DNA from: Phyllobates terribilis
Lineage: Eukaryota
Length of the DNA: 64,000 nt
Assembly (NCBI RefSeq): GCF_046119375.1
Contig: NW_027362771.1
Coordinates: 183,582,001 to 183,646,000, forward strand
Direction: 5' to 3'
Positions 10,801 to 64,000 of this stretch are shown one piece after another; positions within the stretch are counted from its first letter, which is position 1, and each line of letters opens with the position of its first letter. Under the pieces are notes generated by a model that was not told where the DNA came from, did no database searches, and saw only the letters and a list, made by a program, of their open reading frames with translations. A program made the translations under genes and the position numbers.

Positions 10801-11396
10801 TAAGTGGGATCTCCGACCTCATCATCATCACCCTGTGCGTTATCACACCCGTCGTCCTCAGAGCCAACCTGTTCCTGCCCTGACAAAAAACTAAAGTTGT
10901 CGCTCCAATCAGGTATTTGAGTCTTATCATCGTCTTCCTCATTGTCTCCACCAACAGGAGTTACAGTTTGGGAATGAGGGTCTACATTATGGTCAAAACC
11001 TTCTGCGTCTGGTCCTGGATCCGACTCATAAAGATTCTGGGCATCAGTGCAGATCATTTCCTCGTCTGGATTCACAGAAGCGCTGGAGTCGACCTCTGAT
11101 TCCCAGGCTATAGTATGAGTAAACAGCTCTGCAGACTCAACCATCTGTTCTACCTCATACTCAGACGGGCAGCTGGAGATTTGGAAGCTGTGAGGAAGCA
11201 AGTGCGATTTGGGTGACACCTTTGAGGACTGGAGTATTTGTGATGTTGAAGTTGATGTGGAGGAGAGCCCACTTAAAGGAGCACTTGATATCCGTTGAAG
11301 CACCTGCTGTTTTTGTGCCTCATCTGGAATTTGTAGCGATTGGCGTGGCCGTAAGAAAGGGATCTTATCACATTGTCCGCTAAAAGAAGTAGACAT
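7833..11396 (-). CDS. hAT transposase with BED zinc finger (ZBED-like), 1187 aa
   Basis: BED finger AWAFF...CNIC...MNRHMDMKH. Catalytic and conserved motifs HFTTDTWTS, VCDNAAN, CMAHVLNL, PTRWNST and SCPAASVLSERVFS. An in-frame upstream ATG at 11534 is blocked by a TGA at 11505-11507. Confidence 0.93.
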   Translation of the reverse strand: MSTSFSGQCDKIPFLRPRQSLQIPDEAQKQQVLQRISSAPLSGLSSTSTSTSQILQSSKVSPKSHLLPHSFQISSCPSEYEVEQMVESAELFTHTIAWESEVDSSASVNPDEEMICTDAQNLYESDPGPDAEGFDHNVDPHSQTVTPVGGDNEEDDDKTQIPDWSDNFSFLSGQEQVGSEDDGCDNAQGDDDEVGDPTYCQPTVSQEMRSAEEVEEDASDDEVRLRLPGQRRSTGSTSTTASSNTTLPLTTSRGGSSGRMGAKPCIAWAFFQIDKDDPTRVICNICQQKLSRGQKIHSLSTSCMNRHMDMKHKLQWEAQCATMRPSRPGQPPSAISCASAASSSSVTGGTVVTPVLGRRPATSLPATASVIGRSSFSLEVVTPAGVERCLTSIAPPLDQGNLTCPPASSSQTGSLPGTPLSTPSKHNSQPLVPQMWTSKRPFPPSHEKAKRLNFTICKLLATEMLPFRLVDTEDFRDLMSVAVPQYQMPSRHYFSKKGVPALHQHVAHNITASLRNSVCDRVHFTTDTWTSRHGQGRYMSLTGHWVTMVTAGQGAAVQVLPSPRVVRQSSLCQSSSTASASSTSSRSSTCTQSLSGHATSFLTAQKGSCTPPYHAGSRAQRHQAVFTLKCLGNVSHTAEELWSALENQFHEWLSPLDLKPGKAVCDNAANLGAALCRGNVTHVPCMAHVLNLVVQQFLAHYPRLDGLLQRARSLCAHFRRSHPAAQRLTSLQKSLGLPLHRLKCDVPTRWNSTLHMLQRLWQHRQALVQYVLTYSLGQRDSEVGQITLEEWSQIRDLCTLLHSFEMATKMFSADDAIISMTIPVIYMLEHMLNRIRSQVVAQEEVEEVEEEELYAEGLTSARSRRSAAPRRQACEGGGDGFTRAHGSSQTSEEGAGAQEEVEDELMEDSSDEGDLDHISVVRGSGERTEEGSMIVTSAPTQQGLGAPGCATHMSAFLLHYLQHDPRIVRIRNNPDYWVATLLDPRYKSKFAEIIPAIERNARMQEYQQRLLQNLACAFPQNTSGARSESHSSNLPTVGPSSVQHSNRNRTTVSAGNINFAESFHHFFSPSFARPQETRSLTHSQRLETMVQEYLQVNIEATTVSLDPCSFWASNLDKWPELATYALEILSCPAASVLSERVFSAAGGVLTDKRTRLSTDNVDRLTFIKMNKSWIRNDFSTPVSSWGE

Positions 11397-23948: not shown

Positions 23949-25844
23949 CTAGATGGTGGCCCGATTCTAACGCATCAGGTATTCTAGAATAGGTATGCGG
24001 CCGACCAGGCGCAATCAGCAGAGTGGTATTTAAATTTGGCGCCAAAATCGCTGATTGGTCGAGGCCGGCAACCGCGACCAATTAGCAAAGCGGTGTTAAA
24101 ATTTGGCGCCTATATCGCAGATTGGTCAGGGCCGGCGGTCACAACTAATCAGCAGAGCGGGGTTTAAATTTGGTGCCAATAATGCTGATTGGTCGCGGCC
24201 AGCGAACGCGAACAATCAGCAGAGCGGGGTTTAAATTTGGCGGCAATAATGCTGATTGGTTGCTGCCGGCGGTCGCGACCAATCAGAAGAGCGTTATTCA
24301 AATTTGGCGCTAATAATGGTGATTGGTCACGGCCGTGACTAATCAGCAGAGCGGTGTTTAAATTTGTCGCCAATAATGCTGGTTATTCGTGACCGGTAAC
24401 CGCGACCAATGAGCAGAGCGGTATTTAAATATGGCGCCAATATCGCTGATTGGTCGCGGCCGGCCACCACAACCAATCAGCGAAGCGGTGGTTAAATTTG
24501 GCGCCAATATCGCTGGTTGGTCACGGTCGGTGGTTGCAACTAATCAGCAGAGCGAGGTTTAAATTTGGCGCCAATACTGCTGATTGGTCGCGGCCGGCGA
24601 CCGCGACCAATCAGCTGAGCGGTGTTTAAATTTGGCGCCAATATTGCTGATTGGTCGCGGCCGGAAACCGCGACTAATCAGCAGAGCGGGGTTTAAATTT
24701 GGTGCCAATACTGCTTATTGGTCGCGGCCGGCGACCGCGACCAATCAGCAGAGCGGTGTTTCAAATTGGCACCAAAATCGCTGATTAGTCGCGGCCGGCC
24801 ACCGCGACCAATCAGCAGAGCGGCATTTAAATTTGCCGCCCATCTCGCAGATTGGTCGCGGTGGCCGGCTGCGACCAATCAGCAGAGCGGCGTTTAAATT
24901 TGCCGCCCATCTCGCTGATTGGTCGCGGTAGCCGGCCGCTACCAATCAGCAGAGTGGCGTTTAAATTTGCCGCCCATCTCACTGATTGGTCGCGGTAGCC
25001 AGCCACCGCAACCAATCAGCACAGCGGCGTTTACATTTGCCGCCCATCTCGCTGATTGGTCACGGCCGGCCACCGCGACCATTAAGCACAGCGGCGTTTA
25101 CATTTGCCGCCCATCTCGCTGATTGGTCGCGGTCGGCCCCGCCACCGCGACCAATCAGCAGAGCGGCATTTAAATTTTCCGCCCATCTCGCTCATTGGTC
25201 GCGGTGGCCACCGTGACCAATCAGCAGAGCAGCGTTTAAATTTGCCGCCCATCTCGCTGATTGGTCGCGGTCGGCCGGCCACCGCGACCAATCAGCAGAG
25301 CGGCGTTTAAATTTGCCGCCCATCTCGCTGATTGGTCGCGGCCGGCCACCGCGACCAATCAGCGTCGTATTAGTGTGGGCCCGGGAGCGGCGCTGCTTGT
25401 GCGGCTCCGTATTAGCGAGGACCGGGGAGCGGCGCTGCCTGTGCGGCTCCTTCTGCTGCGAGAAGCCAGGAGATGAGCGGCTGCTCGCAGCAGAAGTATC
25501 CCGACCGGCGGCACCACTCCTCGGTCGTCCGTTCACACTTGCTGTCGGGAAATCAGCGGGCCAAGCCGCTGATCTTCCGACGTTAGCCGCATGGAGGTCA
25601 GCGGCGCGGTCGGGGTAGTTGTGCTGCTAGCGCCGCTCATCTCCCCGCTGCATCGCCGCTGACCTCCGTCCGCCAAATGAGCCGCTAACGGCCGCCATCT
25701 TTTTTCAGAAATCCCGCGGCGCTGATTGGCCGCTGCCGGACCAATGAGCGACGCGGGATTTCCAGGACAGAAAGACAGACAGACAGAAAGACAGACAGAC
25801 AGATAGACAGACAGACAGATGGGATAAGACAATTATATAGTAGA
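23949..25844 (-). mobile_element. Non-autonomous Helitron
   Basis: Minus-strand 5' end TCTACTATATA at 25844; 3' hairpin c(c/t)gatgcgttagaatcggg followed by CTAG at 23949-23952; inserted between A and T with no TSD; (GACA)n near the 5' end. Confidence 0.85.
24010..25365. repeat. ~67-bp CpG-rich tandem array (about 20 units) inside the Helitron
   Basis: Unit aatcagcagagcggtgtttaaatttggcgccaatatcgctgattggtcgcggccggcgaccgcgacc. Confidence 0.9.
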
Positions 25845-37971: not shown

Positions 37972-40900
37972 TGTCACACTGTCACAGAATACTGGAGGTA
38001 GGGGGCCTAAGCTGACCCTAAGCTGGGGCCCTGACTAATCCCTCAACCTGGAGGTACTGTTAAAGGTACAGAGGTCCAGGCCGCCAGCGTAACCCCTACC
38101 TCCTGAGGATCCCTGCACCTCAGTAATCTAGTCCTGAGAAGGACCCCGATCACAACAATTGGGAACCAGAAATAATATGCCCACACACAGTATTTAGACG
38201 AACGAGACAGTACAAGGGAAAAACCAAAACCACCTTGCATACAACTTCTACACAACTACAACAGAGGGAACACCAACGGGAAAGGAGATAAATGATAAAG
38301 CGAGGAAAGGGAAAAAACACTTCCAAATACACTTATCTCAGCAACTCCAAACACCACGATCCGCTCTGTAAGTCTGAATGAAAAGCTTTCACCGACACCT
38401 CCCAAACAGACCTGCAGGAATATGAAGGAGTCTCACTAAAGAAGCATTGATTGCAGCTGGGCGAGGCTGGACCTCAGCTAGCCCAGAGAGAGAGAGAATT
38501 AACTCCTTCACTGCCGAAAAAACACAAAGCACCAACAAGTCAGCTGCGAGAAGTCAGGCTGTGTACTCGTGACGATCTTCGTGGCAACACACCCGTGACA
38601 GTACCCCCCCTTCTACGAGGGGCCTCCGGACCCTCAGGGCCAGGTTTATTCGGGTGAGTCGTGTGGAAGGCCCGAACTAATCGGTCTGCGTTAATATCCG
38701 ACGCAGGAACCCACATCCTCTCCTCAGGACCATACCCCTTCCAATGAACCAAGTACTGAAGGGACCGGCGATTAAAGCGTGAATCAATGACCCTCGATAC
38801 CTGGAACTCCAAGTTACCATTGACAACCACAGGAGGGGGAGGTAAAGGTGACGGTACCACCGGCGCCACATACCTCTTAAGCAATGATCTGTGAAACACG
38901 TTGTGAATTTTAAACGTAGGGGGGAGGTCAAGACGGAATGCCACCGGATTAATAACAGAACTGATTCTGTACGGCCCGATGAACCTGGGACCCAGTTTCC
39001 AGGAGGGAACCTTAAGTTTAATATTCCTGGTAGACAACCATACCTGATCGTTCACACTTAGGTCCGGACCAGACACTCTCCTCCTATCAGCCATACGTTT
39101 GTATCGGTTCCCCATAGTATTCAGATTCTTCAGCACCCCTCTCCATACTGAAGCGAGAGATGAGGAAAATCGTTCCTCCTCCGGAACCCCCGAAGAGCCC
39201 CCCCTACTGAAAGTACAAAACTGGGGGTGAAAACCATATGCCCCAAAAAACGGGGACTTACCAGTGGACTCGCTCCGCCTATTATTGAGAGCAAACTCTG
39301 CCAGAGGTAGGAAAGAAGCCCAGTCCTCCTGGTTCTCTGACACAAAACACCGAAGATATGTCTCCAAGCTCTGGTTCATACGTTCCGTCTGACCATTGGT
39401 CTGAGGATGAAAAGCCGACGAGAATGACAAATGCATCCCCCGCCGTGCACAAAACGCCTTCCAGAACTTGGACACAAACTGAGACCCCCGATCAGACACC
39501 ACCTCGGAGGGTACCCCGTGAAGCCTCACAATTTCCCCAATGAACACCTGCGCAAGAGTTTTAGCATTAGGGAGAGCCATCTTGCTGAACCTGTCCACTA
39601 CAACGAGTATGACCGTTTTACCCGAAGACGGAGGGAGGTCCGTAATAAAGTCCATAGACAGATGAGTCCAAGGACGCTCCGGGATCTTCAAAGGTAAAAG
39701 GGCCCCAGACGGACGGGTATGTGAGGTCTTAGAGCGCGCACAAACCCCACAGGACGCGACAAAAGTTACCACCTCTTTATGTAAGTTAGGCCACCAAAAC
39801 CGACGCGAGAGGAGATCCACAGTTGCTTTACTCCCCGGGTGTCCTGCAAAAACTGAGTTATGGTGTGCCTCGATCACCTTTTGTCGCAACTGATCTGGAA
39901 CGAACAGTCTCCCCGGAGGTCCAACAGGGGCGTCCCCCTGAGCCTCCAATATCTCCTCCTCCAGCTCAGAGCATACTGCCGAAACCACCACCCCCTCCTG
40001 AAGGATAGGAATCGGGTCGTCCGTATTCCCGGCCCCAGGGAAACTACGAGATAAGGCATCCGCCTTTACATTTTTAGACCCAGGACGATATGTAACGACG
40101 AAATTAAACCTGGTAAAAAACAATGACCACCTAGCTTGTCTGGGATTCAGACGTTTAGCGGACTCCAGATATAGCAGGTTTTTGTGATCGGTGATGACGG
40201 TGACCGGATGAACTGCCCCCTCCAAAAAATGGCGCCACTCCTCAAAAGCTAACTTAATGGCCAAGAGTTCCCTATTGCCGACATCGTAATTCCTCTCAGC
40301 GGACGACAATTTTTTAGAGAAAAAGGCGCACGGATGCCACTTACCAGGGGACGAACCCTGTGACAATACTGCTCCCACCCCTACCTCGGAAGCGTCTACC
40401 TCTACAAAGAATGGCTGAGACGCATCAGGTTGAATGAGTATGGGTGCCGAGGCAAAACATTTTTTCAAGGAGGAGAATGCTTGACAAGCCTTGTCAGACC
40501 ACCTAGAAAAATCCGTCCCCTTTTTAGTCATGTCTGTGAGAGGCTTAACCATGGACGAGAAATTACGAATGAACTTCCGGTAATAGTTAGCAAACCCCAG
40601 GAAACGTTGTAGTGCCTTAAGATTCTCCGGCCGATCCCACTCAAGAACTGCCCGCACTTTCCCAGGGTCCATACGAAAACCGGACGCTGAAACCAGGAAG
40701 CCTAAAAACTGGAGTTCCTGTACGGCGAACACACACTTTTCCCACTTGGCATACAGTTTATTATCCCGCAAGATCTGTAACACCTGCCTAACGTGCTCCT
40801 GATGAGACACCAGATCCGGCGAGTAAATTAAGATATCATCCAGATATATGACAACAAACTGTCCCACCAGGTGGCGAAAAATATCATTAACAAAGTGTTG

Positions 40901-43395
40901 AAACACCGCCGGGGCATTAGTCAGACCGAATGGCATGACAAGGTTCTCATAATGCCCCTCCGGAGTGTTAAAAGCCGTCTTCCACTCATCCCCCTCCTTC
41001 ATCCTAATCAGATTGTACGCCCCCCTGAGATCCAACTTAGAGAACCATTTGGCGCCCACGATCTGATTAAAGAGATCGGGAATAAGTGGGAGCGGATACG
41101 GATCTCGGACCGTAATCCGATTAAGTTCACGGAAATCCAGGCAAGGGCGTAGGCCTCCATCTTTCTTCTTAACAAAGAAGAACCCCGCGGCCACCGGTGA
41201 AGATGAAGGTCTAATATGCCCCTTAGCCAGACTTTCAGAAATATAATCCTTCATGGCCTGCCTCTCAGGACCAGAAAGGTTATACAACCTAGCTTTAGGT
41301 AACTTGGCCTCAGGGAGCAGTTTTACAGAACAGTCATACTCGCGATGAGGAGGTAGTTCCTGACACCCATTCTCCGAGAATACATCCTCAAAGTCCGCCA
41401 GAAATGGAGGTAAGACCCAAGGAGTAACCGCACCGATGACCGTGTTCATGCAGTTTTTATTACAGAATTTACTCCATTGGCTTATCTCTCTGGTTTGCCA
41501 ATTAATAACCGGGTTATGCTTAGCTAACCAAGGAAGGCCCAACACTATAGGAGCGGGAAGACCCTCCAACACGTAGCAAGACAACAGTTCTTTATGTATT
41601 GCCCCCACTTGAAGTTTTACGCCATGCACAGCTTGCAAAAAACTTCCCTGACCGAGAGGCCTGGCATCGATCGAGAATATGGGGATGGGTTTAGCCAACT
41701 CACTCAATCGCATACCTTGAACCCGGGCAAACCGAGCATCAACCAGTTTAGCCCCGGCCCCACTATCCAGAAGAACAGATATCCTCTCAGTTCTCGCACC
41801 CACCACCACCTCCGCCGGTACGAGAAACTGAGACGAACCTAGGGACGAAATACCTACTCCCAGATTGCCGTCCACCACACAACCTGGGATCAACAGTTTT
41901 TTCGACGACTCTTTACTCTGCAAGGGACGGGATGGACACCCCCCAATAAAATGTCCCTTTTTCCCGCAGAGGAAACACCTTCCTGTCTTATGGCGCTCCA
42001 CCGGTCCCCTTCCCCGAAATGATGTCCCTCCTAATTGCATAGGCTCCTCCGGACTGACCAGGGGAACCACCATATGAGGGGACCTTGTAGGAGGTGGAGA
42101 CATTACAGGGGGTAGAGTTATCCCGCACCTCTCCCGAAGCCGTCTGTCAACGCGAATGGCAAGGGCCATAGCGGCTTCCAGTGACGCGGGAGAGTCATAC
42201 TGTGCCAACACATCCTGTAATTTGTCGGATAAACCATGACAAAACTGGCTCCTAAGAGCCGGGTCATTCCACTGGGTGTCCGTGGCCCACCTACGGAACT
42301 CCGAACAGAATTCCTCCGCCGGACGATCTCCCTGCTGAATCCTACGTAACTTAGACTCAGCAAGGGAGATCCGATCTGGGTCATCATATACGAGTCCCAG
42401 AGCAGCGAAAAACCTATCCACTGACTGGAGAACCGGGGAGCTTGGGGGAAGAGAGAACGCCCAAGATTGTGGGTCTCCTTGTAGGAGCGAGATGACAATT
42501 CCCACCCTTTGTTCTTCGCTGCCCGATAACCGAGGCCGCAGCCGAAAGTACAATTTGCATGCCTCCCGGAAAACAAAAAACTTGTCCCGCCCCCCAGTGA
42601 ACCTGTCAGAGAGAGCTACTTTAGGTTCTGGTCCGGCTTGCTCCAGAGGATGCAAAACCTTGGACCTAACGTCCGCCAGCCCCATGGACAAACTCTGCAA
42701 CTGCCGAGCTAGACCGGCTACTGGATCCATGGTAGCTGGAGAAAAACTAAGTTGGTCGGTGAAAATGTCACACTGTCACAGAATACTGGAGGTAGGGGGC
42801 CTAAGCTGACCCTAAGCTGGGGCCCTGACTAATCCCTCAACCTGGAGGTACTGTTAAAGGTACAGAGGTCCAGGCCGCCAGCGTAACCCCTACCTCCTGA
42901 GGATCCCTGCACCTCAGTAATCTAGTCCTGAGAAGGACCCCGATCACAACAATTGGGAACCAGAAATAATATGCCCACACACAGTATTTAGACGAACGAG
43001 ACAGTACAAGGGAAAAACCAAAACCACCTTGCATACAACTTCTACACAACTACAACAGAGGGAACACCAACGGGAAAGGAGATAAATGATAAAGCGAGGA
43101 AAGGGAAAAAACACTTCCAAATACACTTATCTCAGCAACTCCAAACACCACGATCCGCTCTGTAAGTCTGAATGAAAAGCTTTCACCGACACCTCCCAAA
43201 CAGACCTGCAGGAATATGAAGGAGTCTCACTAAAGAAGCATTGATTGCAGCTGGGCGAGGCTGGACCTCAGCTAGCCCAGAGAGAGAGAGAATTAACTCC
43301 TTCACTGCCGAAAAAAACACAAAGCACCAACAAGTCAGCTGCGAGAAGTCAGGCTGTGTACTCGTGACGATCTTCGTGGCAACACACCCGTGACA
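37972..43395 (-). mobile_element. Young full-length Ty3/Gypsy chromovirus (sushi/Tf1-like)
   Basis: LTRs 37972-38600 (629 bp) and 42766-43395 (630 bp); I saw only a 1-nt poly-A difference by eye. TG...CA ends, 5-bp TSD ACTGG, PPT AGAAGGGGGGG next to the 3' LTR. Confidence 0.95.
38540..42730 (-). CDS. Gag-Pol polyprotein (Gag, CCHC, protease, RT, RNase H, integrase, chromodomain), single frame, 1396 aa
   Basis: CFLCGKKGHFIGGC, VLLDSGA, YLDDIL, DASEVG, HNSVFAGH..C..C, DFIT / SDRG / ERMN, and FQVSRVIDSR...YLVHWKGYGPEERMW. Confidence 0.95.
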   Translation of the reverse strand: MDPVAGLARQLQSLSMGLADVRSKVLHPLEQAGPEPKVALSDRFTGGRDKFFVFREACKLYFRLRPRLSGSEEQRVGIVISLLQGDPQSWAFSLPPSSPVLQSVDRFFAALGLVYDDPDRISLAESKLRRIQQGDRPAEEFCSEFRRWATDTQWNDPALRSQFCHGLSDKLQDVLAQYDSPASLEAAMALAIRVDRRLRERCGITLPPVMSPPPTRSPHMVVPLVSPEEPMQLGGTSFRGRGPVERHKTGRCFLCGKKGHFIGGCPSRPLQSKESSKKLLIPGCVVDGNLGVGISSLGSSQFLVPAEVVVGARTERISVLLDSGAGAKLVDARFARVQGMRLSELAKPIPIFSIDARPLGQGSFLQAVHGVKLQVGAIHKELLSCYVLEGLPAPIVLGLPWLAKHNPVINWQTREISQWSKFCNKNCMNTVIGAVTPWVLPPFLADFEDVFSENGCQELPPHREYDCSVKLLPEAKLPKARLYNLSGPERQAMKDYISESLAKGHIRPSSSPVAAGFFFVKKKDGGLRPCLDFRELNRITVRDPYPLPLIPDLFNQIVGAKWFSKLDLRGAYNLIRMKEGDEWKTAFNTPEGHYENLVMPFGLTNAPAVFQHFVNDIFRHLVGQFVVIYLDDILIYSPDLVSHQEHVRQVLQILRDNKLYAKWEKCVFAVQELQFLGFLVSASGFRMDPGKVRAVLEWDRPENLKALQRFLGFANYYRKFIRNFSSMVKPLTDMTKKGTDFSRWSDKACQAFSSLKKCFASAPILIQPDASQPFFVEVDASEVGVGAVLSQGSSPGKWHPCAFFSKKLSSAERNYDVGNRELLAIKLAFEEWRHFLEGAVHPVTVITDHKNLLYLESAKRLNPRQARWSLFFTRFNFVVTYRPGSKNVKADALSRSFPGAGNTDDPIPILQEGVVVSAVCSELEEEILEAQGDAPVGPPGRLFVPDQLRQKVIEAHHNSVFAGHPGSKATVDLLSRRFWWPNLHKEVVTFVASCGVCARSKTSHTRPSGALLPLKIPERPWTHLSMDFITDLPPSSGKTVILVVVDRFSKMALPNAKTLAQVFIGEIVRLHGVPSEVVSDRGSQFVSKFWKAFCARRGMHLSFSSAFHPQTNGQTERMNQSLETYLRCFVSENQEDWASFLPLAEFALNNRRSESTGKSPFFGAYGFHPQFCTFSRGGSSGVPEEERFSSSLASVWRGVLKNLNTMGNRYKRMADRRRVSGPDLSVNDQVWLSTRNIKLKVPSWKLGPRFIGPYRISSVINPVAFRLDLPPTFKIHNVFHRSLLKRYVAPVVPSPLPPPPVVVNGNLEFQVSRVIDSRFNRRSLQYLVHWKGYGPEERMWVPASDINADRLVRAFHTTHPNKPGPEGPEAPRRRGGTVTGVLPRRSSRVHSLTSRS

Positions 43396-48920: not shown

Positions 48921-49778
48921 TTAAGGTGTAACACACAGAGAAGATCTGAAAATGGTCACCAATTACTTCTCAGAAACTCATCTTTTATAACAGACATTGC
49001 ACTTACAAAAAGATTAAACCATTTAGATAAAGGACATTCAGGTCAAATTTAAAGGTCTTGAGGAAGATTCTAAAATAATAGGTGAAGTAATATAAAGTAG
49101 ATTATGGAGACGGGTTACTTGGGATTGGTAAGGGAGAGAAAAAAGCCTTTAGCATAATATACTTAAGAATACAAATCAAAACCACATGTGCAATGCAAAT
49201 AATATACAGCAAAAAAATAGATTTGTCCAGAATAGCAAAGCCTTTTTTTCTCTTGAGCTTTGTCTTGAAAGAACATTTGTAAAACAATTTTCTCCAATAA
49301 AAACAGGTTTGTAGATAAAGTTAATGTAAACACAACAAGGTATTGTACAGCTGAGCCCGGTATCCAGCTTATGGAAAATGAACAGCGCAGCAGGAGATAA
49401 ATGATTGGTCAAGGGCTAGAGACAAATGCACTTTATGAATCAAAAGAAAACAAAGGTACAAATGTAGCACCCCGAGGACTCGGCTGCTACAGGGGTATTG
49501 CACCTCGAACCAGAGGTGTGATATTCCACTCCCGGGTAAGGATGGAGTGTGGAACATAGCTCAGTTAGCTGCATGCACTACACTCACCCCATTTCCGGGG
49601 GACAGACCAACGGTACTCCCACCAGATAGATGTGCAGGTACGACAGCTTCTGTCCCTGGCTGGAGTGGGGAGGGGGGAGGAACATCCCAGTGGTGTAGGA
49701 GCAGACAGGGGAGGGACTCTGGGCATAGGTAGGAGCCCATTGGGTGCTAGTCACCTGGGCTCGGGTGTCAGAAGGGAG

Positions 49779-49786
49779 TATAAAAG
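49779..49786 (+). promoter_or_regulatory. Probable LTR TATA box
   Basis: TATAAAAG followed by GTGGGCACCATCTT; identical in the 3' LTR and in the solo LTR at 4671. Confidence 0.6.
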
Positions 49787-50742
49787 GTGGGCACCATCTT
49801 GGATTAGAGAGTTCAGGCAGGAGGAGAAGAGGAGAGGAGCTCAGCCAGAGAGGGCTGACAGGGAGCTGTGGCTCAGTCCGGGCCCAGCTCCAGAGCCAGG
49901 CCTGGAGAGGAGGCCCGAGGCAGAGAGAGAGAGAGAAAGAAGAAGAAGGAGGAACAGAAACACCAGGAAAGGCCCAGAGACGCAAGAAGAGAGGGAACCC
50001 TGAGATCCCACGAGTTAACGGGTGAAGGGTTGGCAGAACAGGGTACCGGATCCCAAACTGGTGGAGGCCAATTATCCTCAGCCAGGAACCGGAGGTCGTG
50101 GTCAAGCCTTGGCGCGACCCCTCACCATATCCACCAGGAAGGCATACCACGTATAGGGTCAGGGGAGCCGGGAAAGGTTTCACCACTAGAAGGCCCGAGG
50201 GAGCCGGACAAAGGTGGGTCCCTGGTGGGGACGGCCAGTAGAAAGGAAGAGAGGGGAGCCCTGGACCACGCTCCGGAATTGCCTGGGAGTTAGCCGAGTC
50301 CCTCACCTGGTGGGCGCAGCACGGCTCGGGTGGTCCTTACTGCGCACAAGTAACCTGATAAAGAACTGTGAGTAAAGCTGTGAAAACTGCAACCGCACGT
50401 CTCAGTGATTCCTTGCCACACTACCACTACCACCATCATTCTTCCCTGCCTTTCCAGCTGCCCTGAGGCTATACCCCTCCCGTTGGGGGTTATACCATCC
50501 ACGCTGCACCACCGTACCACCGGCCTCAGCGGTCTGCCGTGCAGCGGCGGCTTCATAGCCGCAATCAACGGGTGGCGTAGTCGAACAAAATAACATCTTA
50601 TGCCAAGCATCGCCACTTAGTTTGACACCCTGGGCACGGACCGGGTCACCGCCACGAGGACTACTACCCCTATCGGATCCGGCTCCGGGTATTCCCCGCA
50701 TGCGCAACGCTGCACAACATGGCCCAGGGGGTGAGTCAACTT

Positions 50743-50761
50743 TGGCGTAGTCGGCAGGATT
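50743..50761 (+). promoter_or_regulatory. Primer-binding site complementary to the tRNA-Ser 3' end
   Basis: TGGCGTAGTCGGCAGGATT lies 4 nt after the 5' LTR. It is the reverse complement of ...AATCCTGCCGACTACG-CCA, the recalled vertebrate tRNA-Ser end. Confidence 0.85.
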
Positions 50762-50962
50762 ACGTGCCCGCAACCACCGGGTACTGCGTGCCTGAAGGAA
50801 AGTTAACATGTACCTGAAAAAGAAGTCTCCCGCCAATTCCGGAGGATTCCCGCCATCGGACGCCGTCCGGAGTCGTTTCCCGCCGTTTGCCCCGCCATTT
50901 GCAGCCTTTACCCGCCATCCGCGGAGTTTCCCGCCATCAGGAGACGATTCCCGCCATCTGAG

Positions 50963-52696
50963 ATGGTTTCCCGCCCTGGCAGAGCGGACGCCATTATGGG
51001 CGTGCCAGAGGGTGGCAAGAGACCACCTCCCATCGTGGGCATGGCCCCAGAGTGGCGCCAAAGGAAGAGACCGCCCCCACCAGCCGAGACTACAATAATG
51101 GAGATGTCCATCAGAGTGGGGGGTCTGCCCCTGAAACTGACTGTCACTAAGATGCCCCGGGACCACTCCCAATGGGGGCGGATAGGGAATAAAGCTGAGA
51201 AGATGGGTGCGGCCTGGAGGAGTCTGGACAGATCGCACCCGGGGATGGAGGAAGAGTCGAGCAGCACCGACCCCGTGGTTCGGAGCCTGTTGCAGGCCGC
51301 CACCCCAGAAGGCCTGGTGGATATCCTGGCACAACTCCCCAGAGATCGGGAGCGTGCACAGACCGCGCTGGAGGCCTTGGCCCGGAAGATGGCCCAAGTA
51401 CAGCAGGAAGCACTGGCCGAATGGAGAAGGGAGATGGCCCAGCAGGCTGGAACCCGCCAGCAGAGGACGCCACCCGCAACGTGGGGCATGTCTGCCCCTG
51501 AGGATGGTGCAGGAGGGACGAAGGCCGGAGACGACGCCGCGGAGGGAGCTGCAAGGATGGAAGCAGGTAATGGGGACGTCACTACCCCGAGCCCAGTAGC
51601 CGCAAGCCTGCCCCAGCTCCCCGTCGCAGAGCCCGAAGTCCTACTCACCACGCCCGTTGCCGCACCGCCACTACTCCCAACTAGGCCTCAAGCGGCAGGA
51701 GCCGCGGTCACGGCCTCTTCCGCGCCACGCCCCTTGACCCTGAGCGCGGCAAAACAGGAAGTGCCACCGGCCTGGTCGCAGGGCCTGGTGAACCCAGGCG
51801 CTGATGCCCCTCCAGCGCCCTCTTCCTCAACGGTGCCGTCCTTTGACCCAAATAGGATTCCCCCGGCCTGGTCGCAGGGCCGAGTACCCCCGGGCGCCGC
51901 GGTCTGCACAGCGCCCTCTACCTCCACTGTTCCGCCGGCCTGGTCGCAAGGCCGGGTACCTCCGGGCACCGCTGCCCCCACAGCGCCCTCGACCTCCACA
52001 GTGCTGCCCCTGGGCGAAGATCTCTTCGCGCAGCATACTAGCCCGGACGGGCTGCCCTTCGTGTGGCCACCGGAGTACATCAACCCCCGACTCCGGAGGG
52101 AACGGCCCCTGTGTGAGCCTCTGATCCCGGCACCGGCGCCTGCCAAAATTGTCCCGCTCCCATTGGAAGACGCCCAATTCGCATGGGATCCGACCGGTGA
52201 GGACCTCATGGGGTTCACCAAGGAGACCCGGGCGGCCGCAGCCCGGCGTGAGGAGTGCTGCCGTCAACAGCTGGAGGTCTTTGGGAGAGAACGGCGAGAG
52301 AGGCGAATCCGCGAGGAACAGCTGCAGGCCCAAAGCGCGGAGCAGAAACGCCGGGCCCGACGAAACCCCCGTACGGCCCACGGCCCCCGCACCACCGGGA
52401 CCGTAATAAAGTTTCAACTGGAGAACGGCTGGGGCTTTATCCGGGATCACCGAACCCCCGGCGACGTCTTTGTCACCCGCAGGGATGTCAAGAGCCACCT
52501 GCCGGAGGGACACCGCGGACGTGACCTCTACCCGGGTGATGTGGTCGCCTTCACCTGGCATCAGTGTGCCAAAGGACCGTACGCCCTTCACGTACACCGG
52601 CTAACAGAGGAGGAGTTGCAGTATGAGGAAGACCAAGAGGACCCGGACGGGTCTGAAGACTACCCTCAGGAAGGAGCAGGAGGACATTGTTACTAA
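50963..52696 (+). CDS. 577-aa protein: N-terminal helical/coiled-coil region, Pro/Ala-rich repeats, R/E-rich helix, C-terminal cold-shock domain (~52391-52603), acidic tail
   Basis: Uninterrupted ORF filling most of the internal region. GTVIKFQLENGWGFI...DVFVT...GDVVAF...KGPYALHV fits the CSD/OB-fold pattern (RNP1-like GWGFI, RNP2-like DVFV). Confidence 0.85.
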   Translation: MVSRPGRADAIMGVPEGGKRPPPIVGMAPEWRQRKRPPPPAETTIMEMSIRVGGLPLKLTVTKMPRDHSQWGRIGNKAEKMGAAWRSLDRSHPGMEEESSSTDPVVRSLLQAATPEGLVDILAQLPRDRERAQTALEALARKMAQVQQEALAEWRREMAQQAGTRQQRTPPATWGMSAPEDGAGGTKAGDDAAEGAARMEAGNGDVTTPSPVAASLPQLPVAEPEVLLTTPVAAPPLLPTRPQAAGAAVTASSAPRPLTLSAAKQEVPPAWSQGLVNPGADAPPAPSSSTVPSFDPNRIPPAWSQGRVPPGAAVCTAPSTSTVPPAWSQGRVPPGTAAPTAPSTSTVLPLGEDLFAQHTSPDGLPFVWPPEYINPRLRRERPLCEPLIPAPAPAKIVPLPLEDAQFAWDPTGEDLMGFTKETRAAAARREECCRQQLEVFGRERRERRIREEQLQAQSAEQKRRARRNPRTAHGPRTTGTVIKFQLENGWGFIRDHRTPGDVFVTRRDVKSHLPEGHRGRDLYPGDVVAFTWHQCAKGPYALHVHRLTEEELQYEEDQEDPDGSEDYPQEGAGGHCY

Positions 52697-54944
52697 TGAA
52701 CGGTAACTGAAACTGTATATAGTTACCCGTAGGGGTACCTGTCATGCTGCTAATTGGAGTGTGGTCCCCGTTGGGACTAGAGTGGAACTGTTAAAAAACT
52801 GTTTCCTGTGTGCCCCTATCCCTAACCAGGCTGAGGACTGTGAGCAGCCACTCCCTTATCCCCACTGGCCGAGGACTGAGAGCGGTCAACACCCTGTAAA
52901 TAGTTGCGCTTCTTAAAGCGCCCCCTATTGTTTTTATAAGGAACTGTTTTTCTACCTCGGAATTAGTGACTGTTGCACTTTACCTGGTCACAAGTTGCGC
53001 CGTGGCCAGAGATCAAGAATGTGTTTGTGAAGAACGTTTTATATGAGAATGTTTTACTTGAAAAAGTTTTATATTGAAAGTTTAAATGCTGCTAGTATAA
53101 TAATGTAAAAGTTACCTGTGATGTTCTATAATGTGTCATATGCTAAAAGAGTTCCGGTAGTTTTGACCAGTAACGTTAAAGAGAAGAGTACCTCCCATAA
53201 AGGGATGAGTTGAAAGTTGATATATCTTATATGCAAGTGTACACTTTAAAATTTTTTGTATGTCTAATTGTTTTGCTCTATTCCAGCCCGAGGACGTGCT
53301 GTGATTTACCAGGGGGGAATGTAGCACCCCGAGGACTCGGCTGCTACAGGGGTATTGCACCTCGAACCAGAGGTGTGATATTCCACTCCCGGGTAAGGAT
53401 GGAGTGTGGAACATAGCTCAGTTAGCTGCATGCACTACACTCACCCCATTTCCGGGGGACAGACCAACGGTACTCCCACCAGATAGATGTGCAGGTACGA
53501 CAGCTTCTGTCCCTGGCTGGAGTGGGGAGGGGGGAGGAACATCCCAGTGGTGTAGGAGCAGACAGGGGAGGGACTCTGGGCATAGGTAGGAGCCCATTGG
53601 GTGCTAGTCACCTGGGCTCGGGTGTCAGAAGGGAGTATAAAAGGTGGGCACCATCTTGGATTAGAGAGTTCAGGCAGGAGGAGAAGAGGAGAGGAGCTCA
53701 GCCAGAGAGGGCTGACAGGGAGCTGTGGCTCAGTCCGGGCCCAGCTCCAGAGCCAGGCCTGGAGAGGAGGCCCGAGGCAGAGAGAGAGAGAAAGAAGAAG
53801 AAGGAGGAACAGAAACACCAGGAAAGGCCCAGAGACGCAAGAAGAGAGGGAACCCTGAGATCCCACGAGTTAACGGGTGAAGGGTTGGCAGAACAGGGTA
53901 CCGGATCCCAAACTGGTGGAGGCCAATTATCCTCAGCCAGGAACCGGAGGTCGTGGTCAAGCCTTGGCGCGACCCCTCACCATATCCACCAGGAAGGCAT
54001 ACCACGTATAGCGTCAGGGGAGCCGGGAAAGGTTTCACCACTAGAAGGCCCGAGGGAGCCGGACAAAGGTGGGTCCCTGGTGGGGACGGCCAGTAGAAAG
54101 GAAGAGAGGGGAGCCCTGGACCACGCTCCGGAATTGCCTGGGAGTTAGCCGAGTCCCTCACCTGGTGGGCGCAGCACGGCTCGGGTGGTCCTTACTGCGC
54201 ACAAGTGACCTGATAAAGAACTGTGAGTAAAGCTGTGAAAACTGCAACCGCACGTCTCAGTGATTCCTTGCCACACTACCACTACCACCATCATTCTTCC
54301 CTGCCTTTCCAGCTGCCCTGAGGCTATACCCCTCCCGTTGGGGGTTATACCATCCACGCTGCACCACCGTACCACCGGCCTCAGCGGTCTGCCCTGCAGC
54401 GGCGGCTTCATAGCCGCAATCAACGGGTGGCGTAGTCGAACAAAACAACATCTTATGCCAAGCATCGCCACTTAGTTTGACATCCTGGGCACGGACCGGG
54501 TCACCGCCACGAGGACTACTACCCCTATCGGATCCGGCTCCGGGTATTCCCCGCATGCGCAACGCTGCACAACATGGCCCAGGGGGTGAGTCACAAAGAA
54601 TGTACAAGTGCAAGAATTACATTCAAAAGTAAATGTTTGCAACCGTTATAACACAAGTGTACTACTGGTAGTTGCAATAAAACAATTGTTCTGCTCCACC
54701 AGATGCATAACTAACAAGCTTTTTTCATTAAAATCGGTGGTAGTATAATGATTTTATAACATTATATACTTTTTCCTACCTGCTCATATTCAGTCATAGG
54801 GGTGTGATTCTCTCATTCAGTCAGGGGTGGGCGCAGCATTCAGTCACTGCTGGCGCCACCCATGTATTTTACTATTGCTCCCGGCAATATACACTGGGGG
54901 CAGTGTAGATAGTAGTTAGGATATGACAGGTTCCCTTTTTAAGA

Positions 54945-59884: not shown

Positions 59885-62800
59885 TGACGCGCCCCTGAGC
59901 CTACTTGGTGTAGCGTTGCGCACGCGGGAACTACCCGGAGCCGGGCCTGTTGGGGGTAGTAGTCTCATGGCGGTGACCCGGTCCGTGCCCAGGGAGTCAA
60001 ACTGTGTGGCTGAGTATTAGCAGTAGATGTTGGACGACTACGCCACCCGTTGAATGCAGCTATGGAGCTGCCGCTGCAGGGCAGACCGCTGAGGCCGGTA
60101 GTACGATTGTGCAGCGTAGATGGTATAACCCCCAACGGGAGGGGTATGGCCTCAGGGCAGCCGACGTGGATGATGGGGGTAGCAGGAACCACTCAGAGAC
60201 GATGCGGTGTAGTTCAGGGTCTTTACTGGTGATAAAGATAGACCCTCCCGGAGTACTGGCTAGCGATCGGGGCCTGGTCAGTCTTTGAGCAGATGGGATT
60301 TCCCCTGGCCAGGCGGAGTTGTAGGCCTCCCCAACTAATTGTACTCTTCTGGCTACCTTGCTAGAGGCGGGTAAAAGTAGCCCACGTCCCTGAGTGTACC
60401 GTGTGGTGCTCACCCGTATGGCCGGTGACTCGGGGCCTTCTAGTGGCTTCCGCTCCACGACGGCGGTGCTGGTCCCACGCGTGTGACCGTGCCTTCGGGT
60501 TTCTTGGCCAGAGGACCTGAAATCCCCTGCCGGTCGGTTTCTGCTGCTGGGTAAGGATTAGTCCCCACAGCCTCGGACTCCGGGTCCGGTGGTAACTCTT
60601 CAATCAGGGCGAGCTCTACAGCTGCCAGCCCCTGATTCCTTTTAGCACGACTTCCCCAGAGCTCCTGATCTCTCTTTCCTATAGCTGCTTCTCCTCTTCT
60701 CTCTCTACTCTTTTTCCTCTAACCCTGCCTCAGCCCCAGCTTTATATAGGGGAAGTTCTTCCCCTCCCAGGACTGGGCAGGAGGTGTGGCATGCATAGGA
60801 TGTCTGACCAGGAAACCTCCCACCTGCTCTCAGACATAATATTGCTATTACTGTGGAAACCAGACCCCTGGGGTGCCACATTCCCCCCTAGTGAATTTTA
60901 GTACTCCGGGACTAAACATATTTTTGTAACATAACAAATTACAAACAGAAACAACGCAATAAAGAAAAACATTAGGATGGTCACGGCGTGTCCGCAACCG
61001 GGTGCAGTCTTTGAAGAAAACTAAGGTGTCCATTTCACCAAAAACAGGGAGACGTAACCAGGTAGGGGTCTGTCCTGCCCCGAGTCCTTAACAGTCTTTA
61101 GTCCGTCCTGGGTTACGCTCCAACTATATGCACAAAGGATTCCCGGTAAATCCACCAAAGACTCCTACAAATAACTAGAAACACATAATTATACACAAGC
61201 AACAATAAACAGGTAAACATTAATAAAATAGCTTGAACATTTAGATCCTCCACCGTATGGGCAACTGGCCTCTAGTAACCCTAGTGGACCTACGGAGCTG
61301 GCTGACTGGTCCTGAGCTACAGGGTATAGGAGCTGTCAATGGTAAACTGGGCAGCCGTCTACGGACTCTTTGGCTCACTAGAGGTATGGCAGGCTCACTA
61401 TAAGCAGAGGGTTGATTCTCCTGGTCTGCTTGTGTGGGGTCTTCTGCCTCCTGGACCGGCTGTTCTTCCAGCTCTACCTGTGTCTCCGTAGGCACTTGGG
61501 ATGCTGGTTGGAGGAACGTGAGGACGGGTACCACAACAGCACCATTGACTTGAGTCCAAGACCGAGGGAAGTCTCCGAGCACAGTACTAACCATATCTTC
61601 CCTTTCCTCTACGGGTCGAGGGTCTTCTTGTTCCTCTTCAGGGTTCCGTAGCTGTTCGGGACACTTCTTCAGGTGATCCCGGGATACAATGGCTGTGGTT
61701 TCCCCTCCGTCTTTACTGATTGTACAGATCTTTGGGTTGTCGTGGCTTGAGGGCAGTACGGTGTACGGGTCCTTCTCCCACTGGTCGTCCAACTTGTGGA
61801 GCCGTCTTTTCCTCTTCAAGACCTGCTCTCAGGGCACCAGGGGAACAGCGGGAGCATACTGGTTGTAAGTTTTCTCTTGTCTTTCCCTAGCTTGACAGAG
61901 ACTTCGCTCCACGCTCTCCTGTACTTTCCGGTACTGCTGCTGCCTCTCTGTGTCCCAGTCTGCTTCTGGTGAAGTGTCCTCGGGTGTCAGGACTCCCATC
62001 TCCAGATCAACAGGAAGCTTACCAGGTCTCGCCCTCATTAGGTAAGCCGGGGTGCAGTTGGTGGAACCCACAGGGATGTGGTTGTATAGGTCCACCAGGT
62101 CGGGCAGCTTTTCAGGCCACAGACTACGTTCTTCCAGGGGCAATGTTTTCAGAAGATCTATCACCACCTGGTTCATTTTCTCACAAAGTCCATTAGTTTG
62201 CGGGTGATAGGGTGTTGTTCTTATCTTCCGGCAGCCATACAGGGTGCAGAACTCCTGGAAGACTTCCGCTTCAAAGGCAGGCCCCTGGTCCGTCAGCACC
62301 TGCTCCGGGTATCCGTGCGGACGGCAGAAGTGCTGCTGGAAGGCTCTAGCTGCTGTTTGAGCCGTTAAGTCCTTGACGGGGACGACTACCAAGAACCGGG
62401 AGTAGTGATCCACGATGGTTAACGCGTACACGTAGCCACTTCTGCTTTTGGCCAGTTTTACATGATCCAAGGCTACCAGTTCCAACGGCTGTCTGGTGAT
62501 GATGGACTGCAGGGGAGTCTTCTGGCTGGCACGGTCCCTCCTTCTTAGGTTGCATGGGCCACAGTCTCTGCACCACCTCTCGATGGTTCCTCTCATGCCT
62601 ACCCAATGGAACTGCCCACGCAGCAGGAACTCCAGCTTCTTCCATCCGAAGTGCCCAGCTCCGTCGTGGTATGCCTCCATCACCATAGCTGCGTCTCTTC
62701 TTGGCACCACTACTTGCCAGATTAGTTCATGCGTCCGGGAGTTAACCATTCTGCGGCACAACTTCCCCTTGTAAAGGAACAGTCGACTCTTCTCAGCCCA

Positions 62801-64000
62801 CAGTTGCTTGGCTTCCTCCGGAGCGTCTGGGTCAAGGCGTGCATCTGGCTGAGTCAGCATCTCCTTTACCAGTCGGACAGCAGGGTCACTGTCTTGCGTC
62901 TCCGCCCAGTTGTAATGAGGTAATGGGTTGAACGTAGAGGATTGCTTACTCCTTACACGGTGGGAATACTGGATAGTCTCATGACGGTGGAACGCGGGGA
63001 GTTCAACTTCTTCCAGTTCCTCTGAATCTTCCCCTACGTCCGGTAGGTTCGGCATCCTGGACAGGGCGTCCGCGTTGGTATTGGAGCGTCCTGCCCGGTA
63101 TTTGATTGTAAACTCATAGTTGGACAAGCGGGCCATCCATCTCTGCTCTAGGGCACCGAGTCTTGCAGTGTCCAGGTGTGTCAACGGGTTGTTATCCGTG
63201 TACACGGTGAACCGGGAAGCAGCGAGGTAGTGCTTAAAATGTTTGGTGACTGCCCACACCACTGCCAGGAACTCTAGCTTAAATGAGCTGTAATTCTCAG
63301 GGTTTCTTTCGGTGGGTCGCAGTTTTCGGCTGGCGTAAGCAATTACCCGTTCCTTCCCCTGCTGGATCTGGGACAGTACGGCTCCTAGCCCGATGTTACT
63401 GGCGTCGGTGTAGAGGATAAAGGGCTGGCTATAATCAGGGTACGCCAGGATTTCATCCCCTGTGAGGGCCATCTTCAGCTGGCGGAAGGACTCTTCTTCC
63501 AGCTTCTCCCATCTGAAGGGTGGCTTCTGGTTCTTGGCCTTCCTGGACTGGCCTATCAGGAGGTCCTGCATAGGAGCTGCCTTTTTGGTGAAACCGGGAA
63601 TGAACCTTCGGTAGTAGCCTACCAACCCGAGGAACTGCCTCACTTCCTTTACGCTGGAGGGGCTTGGCCATTCCTTAATTGCGGTGATCTTATCAGGGTC
63701 GGGAGCCACTCCGTCAGCACTCACCACGTGTCCCAGGTACTGCACCTTTGGCTTCAGGAGGTGACACTTGGAGGGTTTCACCTTTAGGCCGTAACTTGCC
63801 AGAGCTTCGAACACTTCCGCCAGGTGTTTCAGGTGGTCCTCGTAGGTCTTGGAATAGACGATGACATCGTCCAGGTATAACAGGACCGTCTCAAAGTTTC
63901 GGTGTCCCAGACAGCATTCCATCAATCGCTGGAAGGTTCCTGGTGCGTTGCAGAGTCCGAACGGCATGCAGGTAAACTCGCTAAGTCCCATCGGGGTGGT
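59885..64000 (-). mobile_element. 3' part of a non-chromovirus Ty3/Gypsy element; the 5' part is outside the window
   Basis: 3' LTR 59885-60880 (TGTGGCACCCC...GCGTCA on minus), PPT AGGGGGGAA at 60881-60889, and pol upstream. Confidence 0.92.
61241..64000 (-). pseudogene. Gypsy pol (RT, RNase H, integrase) with one in-frame stop at 61829-61831
   Basis: MPFGLCNAPGTFQR, YLDDV, YTDASNIG, HDGAGH..C..C, ALDHV, TDQG and EKMN motifs. The sequence reads ...VPLVP*EQVLKRKRR, so ORFs 61829-63991 and 61241-61819 are one frame. Confidence 0.92.

Follow-up and report, generated by a model that had tools for sequence, protein, structure and literature searches.

A pol-less LTR family of the poison frog Phyllobates terribilis keeps a selected cold-shock-domain gene and shares its leader with a candidate Ty3/Gypsy helper

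Elements of the LARD, TRIM and VL30 types are non-coding and depend on the proteins of a helper, but they retain the long terminal repeats (LTRs), the primer-binding site (PBS), the polypurine tract (PPT) and a structured RNA signal. The LTR element described here lies at 49463-54593 of a 64,000-nucleotide stretch of the Phyllobates terribilis genome (RefSeq assembly GCF_046119375.1, contig NW_027362771.1, positions 183,582,001 to 183,646,000 of the forward strand; hereafter the window). Unlike these non-coding types, its family keeps a protein of ~500-600 amino acids (aa), with a cold-shock domain (CSD), under purifying selection.

Coding LTR families have also been described. In the available sections of PMC12067270, zebrafish BHIKHARI (Bik-1, Bik-2) and chicken ENS-1/ERNI are young LTR families in which one long open reading frame (ORF) encodes Gag. 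The window family is likewise young and has one long ORF with a predicted N-terminal coiled coil, and Bik-2 likewise lacks pol and env; BHIKHARI and ENS-1, however, are retroviral and their Gag has a predicted capsid domain (PMC12067270), whereas here the core is a CSD, the presumed partner is Ty3/Gypsy and a capsid was undetected. Xenopus 1A11, xretpos and lambda-olt 2-1 are also frog LTR elements with an ORF lacking pol homology, but 1A11 is described as Gag-like, the copy numbers of these elements are tens to hundreds, and a CSD goes unmentioned in the available part of PMC4585706. In wheat, RLG_Quinta is a coding non-autonomous family with the PBS of its autonomous partner RLG_Cereba, and the pair is likewise long-lived, with recombination ascribed to template switching (PMC11302176, in part). 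Quinta encodes a clear Gag and derives from Cereba according to the same excerpt (PMC11302176), whereas the window ORF has no similarity to the Gag of its candidate helper. Captured genes are known in plant LTR elements (PMC3726574, as far as the available text goes).

The coding non-autonomous families compared (BHIKHARI, ENS-1, 1A11, Quinta) thus encode, in the portions of these sources at hand, Gag or a Gag-like protein. If the sole selected gene of a family codes for an RNA-binding domain of host type, a parasite would be seen to gain an edge over its helper through a borrowed host protein, and cis preference and packaging competition in LTR elements would become testable. No earlier description of a CSD-bearing LTR family was found in listings from the literature, with Dfam, Repbase and supplements outside the search, and the word 'cold' is absent from the available text of two frog repeat papers (PMC6278860, PMC12822217). 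There is a fair chance that the family is a distinct class of LTR element.

The features of the window element and of the neighbouring candidate helper are as follows (TSD, target-site duplication).

49459..49462, no strand: left TSD, CAAA, from comparison of the flanks
49463..54593, + strand: whole element; LTR, PBS, PPT and TSD read from the letters
49463..50738, + strand: 5' LTR, 1276 nt, TG...CA, from the LTR-LTR alignment
49779-49784 and 50371-50376, + strand: TATAAA and AGTAAA in the 5' LTR, from which the U3/R/U5 limits are inferred
50457..50937, + strand: block of U5, PBS and leader common with the autonomous Ty3/Gypsy, from alignment
50743..50761, + strand: PBS TGGCGTAGTCGGCAGGATT, 4 nt past the 5' LTR; its first 19 nt are identical in the autonomous neighbour
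50963..52696, + strand: ORF of 577 codons, the single long frame of the interior
51347..51451, + strand: after two short helices, a predicted long helix (aa 129-163), from the model and generic coiled-coil matches
51473..52177, + strand: Pro/Ala-rich linker, predicted to be disordered (aa 171-405), with PPAWSQG repeats; its length differs among copies
52220..52363, + strand: Arg/Glu-rich long helix predicted by the model (aa 420-467)
52394..52597, + strand: CSD (aa 478-545), from Pfam, Foldseek and PDB sequence search
52607..52693, + strand: acidic tail, 12 D/E and zero K/R in 29 aa
53311..53319, + strand: PPT, purine run AGGGGGGAA, directly 5' of the 3' LTR
53320..54593, + strand: 3' LTR, 1274 nt, from the LTR-LTR alignment
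54594..54597, no strand: right TSD, CAAA, from comparison of the flanks
59885..64000, - strand: Ty3/Gypsy element of the candidate helper family, 7.9 kb long, continuing 3.8 kb past the window end (L031)

A sequence-only reading of the window had described two LTRs of ~1275 bp with ~99.5% identity, a CAAA TSD, a 19-nt PBS with a PPT, and an interior that has neither pol nor a zinc knuckle and keeps an uninterrupted 577-codon ORF. Alignment bears out the first of these points, the LTRs of 1276 and 1274 nt being 99.6% identical (5 substitutions and one 2-nt indel apart), and the repeated CAAA, the PBS and the purine run stand at the positions listed. No reverse transcriptase (RT), RNase H, integrase or protease was found between the LTRs by Pfam or with the window's two Ty3/Gypsy types as probes. 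Pfam returned the CSD only, and the CCHC motif is absent from the ORF protein. The 577-codon frame stands at the window copy, but most close copies start at the second ATG, at 50996 (566 codons), and the longer form occurs in few of them. Gag and Pol of the neighbouring Ty3/Gypsy element do not match the ORF (best E 1.3). The PPT ends in GGGGGGAA, as does that of the autonomous Ty3/Gypsy neighbour. We take the PBS to match tRNA-Ser; no tRNA gene was found for comparison in a pattern search that returned 36 places, the one read being an inverted PBS.

The element belongs to a large family. A 21-nt degenerate motif over RNP1 of the CSD has 24,071 exact matches in the 10.6-Gb genome, against 3 for the reversed control, so that the single-copy element which the sequence-only reading had weighed against its own proposal is not what we see. 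For a position-ordered sample we took 40 stretches that cover the first 41 matches listed, a choice that favours copies with an intact motif. All 40 are homologous to the window element; 37 have the PBS upstream, and 37 have flanking direct repeats (median identity 99.5%), 4 of which are longer tandem repeats and not LTR pairs. A stop-free frame of at least 450 codons is present in 33 of the 40, and gag or pol in none. Automatic TSD calling, with crude end-finding, gave 14 exact cases among 28 calls. Among 14 close copies with both LTRs delimited, three of which are one insertion, 12 have an exact 4-bp TSD and the other two have one mismatch, which shows that copies inserted anew with 4-bp duplications.

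At 115 CSD places, the Ser-type PBS lies within 3.2 kb of the CSD in 97, and no gag or pol stands between the two in any of these 97. Among the same 115 places and the 40 position-ordered matches, an autonomous element carrying the CSD ORF was sought and not found; 30 loci picked by U3, mostly repeats of two insertions, have no helper-type pol inside. The same layout recurs in subfamilies at 51-61% and 74-77% identity (C-terminal part), some of whose LTR pairs are 99.7-100% identical and others 88-97%. At roughly 24,000 copies of ~5 kb, we estimate about 120 Mb, 1% of the assembly, before solo LTRs, a figure that duplicated contigs may inflate. The CSD family thus contributes substantially to the giant genomes of poison frogs, and surveys based on pol would miss it. 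Identical insertions and solo LTRs with identical flanks were observed on many unplaced contigs (e.g. L145-L172). Since the same insertions recur with identical flanks, a larger repeated unit or assembly duplication inflates the counts on small contigs.

The ORF is under purifying selection, most strongly in the CSD. To avoid choosing on the ORF, copies were selected by the non-coding 3' untranslated region (UTR); a CSD ORF of at least 470 aa is kept in 27 of 39 such interiors. Nine repeats of the same insertion were dropped, leaving 31 independent insertions, and variants in at least 4 copies were counted as shared. Within the CSD, 21 shared variants are synonymous and 8 non-synonymous (dN/dS 0.13-0.15, p 1e-6). 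Over the whole ORF the shared-variant dN/dS is 0.34-0.40, against 1.0-1.4 in two shifted frames, while private variants are nearer neutral (0.64-0.75). The region just upstream of the CSD (aa 396-470) gives 0.20-0.25, the N-terminal helical part (aa 96-170) 0.35-0.43 and the linker 0.41-0.46. Selection on aa 12-95 is non-significant within subfamily A (0.67-0.78, p 0.27), and this part is still recognisable across subfamilies. Between subfamilies, dN is ~0.3 and dS 1.7 to saturated; between A and B, dS is 1.9 to saturated at the same dN. Because the shared variants are constrained and dS between subfamilies is high relative to dN, the CSD protein mattered to the multiplying lineages over a long time. 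Neutral decay of the ORF in other copies, which had been named as fatal to the proposal, is contradicted by these values in the CSD and by ratios near 1 in the shifted frames.

The enzymes probably come from a Ty3/Gypsy family, one copy of which sits 5.3 kb downstream of the CSD element. It encodes a PNMA-like CCHC Gag and a PR-RT-RH-IN Pol, with a stop after the integrase core; its LTRs (993 and 996 nt) differ by 8 substitutions, and it has a 4-bp TSD. This family is young, as all 40 scored gag matches are at least 99% identical, and the pol frame is uninterrupted in one of two further copies. The block of U5, PBS and leader is 79% identical between element and candidate helper over 508 columns, and its U5 part 85.5%. 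The two have in common the PBS, the PPT end and this block, whereas U3 and the coding region are not shared. For five stems of the block, chosen partly by eye and partly from RNAalifold, 97.5% of the cells are paired over 25 rows. Nine of 35 stem pairs are changed on both sides, a value reached in none of 500 shuffles, a control that related rows inflate. We also observed that the first 11 nt of the PBS recur at 50573-50583 in U5 of the window element; this second copy hardly varies among 25 rows of element and helper and could be a second tRNA contact.

Chimeric copies connect the two families more directly. In them the helper leader, mostly followed by about twelve initial gag codons that are out of frame, runs into the 3' half of the CSD ORF, and this CSD half stays in open frame. 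Junctions read in 4 loci show two different microhomologies. The helper leader (94-97% identical) stands at 7 distinct CSD places among the loci examined and in none of the 40 position-ordered matches. Since template switching requires both RNAs in one particle, the chimeras point to co-packaging and are its strongest sign. In addition, the U5 tree places three helper rows among subfamily A, whereas A and C group together with full support in the ORF tree; the U5 tree rejects this A+C grouping at a p-AU of 0.029. On these sequence comparisons, the helper relation is well supported. The proposed pol-less satellite that borrows enzymes from a helper Gypsy has thus gained a candidate family with shared cis-elements and chimeras.

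The CSD (aa 478-545) is the sole Pfam match of the ORF protein (E 4.2e-7, 30.2 bits, cut-off 27). With the AlphaFold model, Foldseek found CspA (E 2.7e-6) and the YB-1 CSD (E 7.3e-6), while the closest solved sequences are the CSDs of YBX1/YBX2 (E 1.3e-4; CspA, 0.02). Alignment with Y-box proteins shows that RNP1 (GWGF) and RNP2 (VFV) are retained. The domain is like YBX1/YBX2 in its fold, RNP1/RNP2 and long loop after RNP2; unlike them, it has about one third identity, a position near the C-terminus and changed surface residues, with no introns and no Y-box tail. For a Y-box descent of the CSD there are the order of best matches and the loop length after RNP2 only: in a CSD tree of 30 rows without an intact YBX sequence, 1 of 27 branches is starred, and when a decayed YBX-like copy was used to look for the host YBX gene, it matched only itself. 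The best ESM Atlas score of the ORF protein, 0.85, is a lead only. The element, mostly without its flanks, is covered by contigs from 4 sequencing runs whose kind is unrecorded; these are not counted as evidence of expression.

Outside the CSD, the predicted models (whole protein; aa 12-175) are of low confidence (mean pLDDT 46); they show a possible beta-hairpin and short helices and otherwise only long single helices, and fold searches with them returned CSDs and generic helices only. No Gag family of Pfam was found in the ORF protein or in 31 N-terminal regions. Profile comparison of the ORF with the helper Gag by hhalign gave a probability of 0.2-0.3%, and a PDB profile search of the N-terminal region had an unrelated protein as best match (E 0.04). 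The concern that the N-terminus is an ordinary Gag is therefore not borne out by sequence, the fold models being of low confidence. A Gag origin is unsupported by Pfam, PDB sequences, hhalign and fold searches, which is an absence of support only.

A Pfam-model scan with follow-up search found other CSD elements. In family D, the LTRs measure 1.03 kb and end in CTTACA, the PBS is that of the window element, and the interiors of 2.2-2.8 kb lack pol; the LTR pairs of this family are 97-99.7% identical in 14 of 16 D-type stretches, and its motif has 390 matches (control 0). The shared-variant dN/dS of its CSD is 0.16 (14 interiors). At the DNA level, family D resembles the window element in the PBS alone, and the proteins align over 69 CSD columns only; thus the CSD is the one module common to these families. 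Two further CSD elements, L234 and L237, have another PBS, TGGCGTCACGAACAGGAT. The LTRs of L234 are 1.2 kb and 92% identical around a 1.4-kb interior, and the interior of L237 is rearranged. Further divergent CSD types occur at L227/L247, L248 and L255, where no LTR pair was detected; one of them is near the Ranitomeya imitator protein P0109. Three divergent CSD copies (L183, L224, L225) lie within 40 kb on G000:C4 near 791.5 Mb, with no LTR or PBS seen around L183, and this cluster is possibly domesticated or decayed. At G000:C1 near 734.44 Mb (L173-L178) there is an intron-less, partly duplicated multi-CSD sequence, presumably CSDE1-like and probably a processed copy.

Other frogs also have related proteins. 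Among 150 representatives listed, 10 single-domain matches were checked, of which 1 is from Phyllobates and 7 are from five other frogs (Ranitomeya variabilis, R. imitator, Anomaloglossus baeobatrachus, Bufo bufo and Engystomops pustulosus). The Bufo bufo homologue is named Y-box-binding protein 2-A-like, and Engystomops has four near-identical CSD paralogues, as expected of a repeat. The related proteins of these frogs may likewise be encoded by elements. The CSD family probably accounts for odd 'CSD domain-containing' and 'Y-box-like' models in frog annotations. The gene models P0003, P0158, P0157 and P0109 fuse pieces of the ORF with Harbinger-type nuclease, KRAB zinc-finger, MADF and astacin genes; they are probably annotation artefacts, with exonisation as the alternative.

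The frame upstream of the ORF has features of its own. From the PBS to the first conserved protein motif, 32 of 34 copies (L265-L304) stay in the frame of the CSD ORF at lengths of 132-279 nt (50743-50996 in the window), and in about half of the 34 an ATG stands within the LTR, 24 nt ahead of the PBS. This frame has no stop common to the copies and a dN/dS of 0.76; several B-type copies contain stops, and the window copy is off by one base relative to the CSD ORF. The PBS of family D is in this frame too, and there ~200 codons are open in the LTR. Translation may run through the PBS and add an N-terminal extension.

Taken together, the pol-less element is very probably a satellite dependent on a Ty3/Gypsy helper. 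The structured U5-leader block common to both would serve for recognition of its RNA and the common PBS for priming, and the helper particle, with its RT and integrase, would package, reverse-transcribe and integrate it. As for the protein, we lean towards a role in cis, in which it would protect or deliver its own RNA. The CSD may have been captured from a Y-box gene, which is plausible because host YB-1 supports retroviral RNA stability and the production of HIV, MLV and MMTV particles through RNA (PMC6040738, in its available part). The CSD protein would bind the RNA encoding it, stabilise it and deliver it to helper particles, and the helices may serve in oligomerisation or in contacts with the Gag of the helper or with messenger ribonucleoprotein (mRNP) factors of the host. 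We expect action mainly in cis because the freely shared product of so large a family should lose constraint on multiplying lineages; the rarity of ORF-less copies also speaks for a cis step.

Several observations weigh against this picture. Chimeras without the N-terminal half of the ORF are still found at 7 places among the loci examined, which means that spread does not strictly require the whole protein in cis. A few source copies with a trans-acting product would also give the selection seen on shared variants. Relative to Y-box proteins, the CSD has W changed to K in the first strand and H to T or N after RNP2; because these two positions presumably contact RNA, its binding may differ from that of Y-box proteins. 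The p-AU of 0.029 against A+C in the U5 tree is a modest value, and this grouping was chosen for the test once the tree was known. No helper for family D was found among the loci examined.

The alternative that survives best, although we regard it as unlikely, is a counter-silencing factor or decoy acting in trans, which would derepress element and helper by binding the partners of host Y-box proteins or components of small-RNA pathways. It could accommodate the changed RNA-binding face of the CSD, the long disordered linker whose repeated PPAWSQG motifs could dock partners, the continued spread of N-terminally truncated chimeras, and the high Gypsy expression in ova of a related poison frog, as given in the available part of PMC6278860. 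Its shared benefit, however, should favour ORF-less free-riders, whereas 33 of 40 sampled copies (with the intact-motif bias) keep a long frame, as do 27 of the 39 UTR-selected interiors with at least 470 aa of CSD ORF.

LINE-1 ORF1p forms its own ribonucleoprotein (RNP) particle. The ORF protein might likewise substitute for Gag, its helices polymerising it into an RNP particle with the CSD as nucleocapsid and only Pol borrowed. Coiled-coil-like helices with one RNA-binding domain do stand at gag's usual place, and the helical part is under selection. We nevertheless consider this improbable: the N-terminus of family D is unrelated and the CSD alone is in common, chimeras have spread although they lack the N-terminal helix, a particle common to both is what template switching with helper RNA suggests, and Ty3/Gypsy Pol normally enters particles as a fusion to Gag.

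A further, rather improbable role is mRNP masking, in which the protein would mask the element RNA in maternal mRNP until the helper is active and have no part in packaging. FRGY2 is an oocyte Y-box protein of stored maternal mRNP, the closest solved sequences of the CSD are those of YBX1/YBX2, and the name of the Bufo bufo homologue points the same way; masking is also a cis role and agrees with the selection pattern. Y-box proteins, however, carry a C-terminal tail of alternating basic and acidic stretches, which is missing here, where only the 29-aa acidic tail follows the CSD. It is very hard to credit that the ORF came along neutrally as a transduced fragment of the host or that it is a host gene that has been domesticated, even though host gene capture by LTR elements is known (PMC3726574, available text) and a small cluster of divergent LTR-less CSD copies lies on C4, since purifying selection that is specific to the frame and acts on the shared branches of both families, saturated dS between subfamilies and tens of thousands of dispersed copies largely refute it for the multi-copy families.

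Extending the preferred reading, a helper-dependent satellite with a cis-acting CSD protein, we tentatively suggest, with the balance somewhat against us, that hyloid frogs harbour an old class of several otherwise unrelated pol-less, gag-less LTR families in which a captured Y-box CSD has taken the place of all retroelement genes. The CSD would serve as a cis adaptor into Ty3/Gypsy particles, swapping of the U5-leader block would keep pace with the helper, and in the giant genomes of poison frogs the class would have grown to tens of thousands of copies.

The window contains other features as well. A chromodomain Ty3/Gypsy element at 37972-43065 (- strand) has a single 1411-codon gag-pol frame and LTRs that are identical over the 300 nt compared. 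A hAT transposase at 7833-11504 (- strand) is encoded by an uninterrupted 1223-codon frame with a BED finger and a dimerisation domain, and a tandem array at 23945-25363 consists of a 67-nt unit rich in CCAAT-like motifs.

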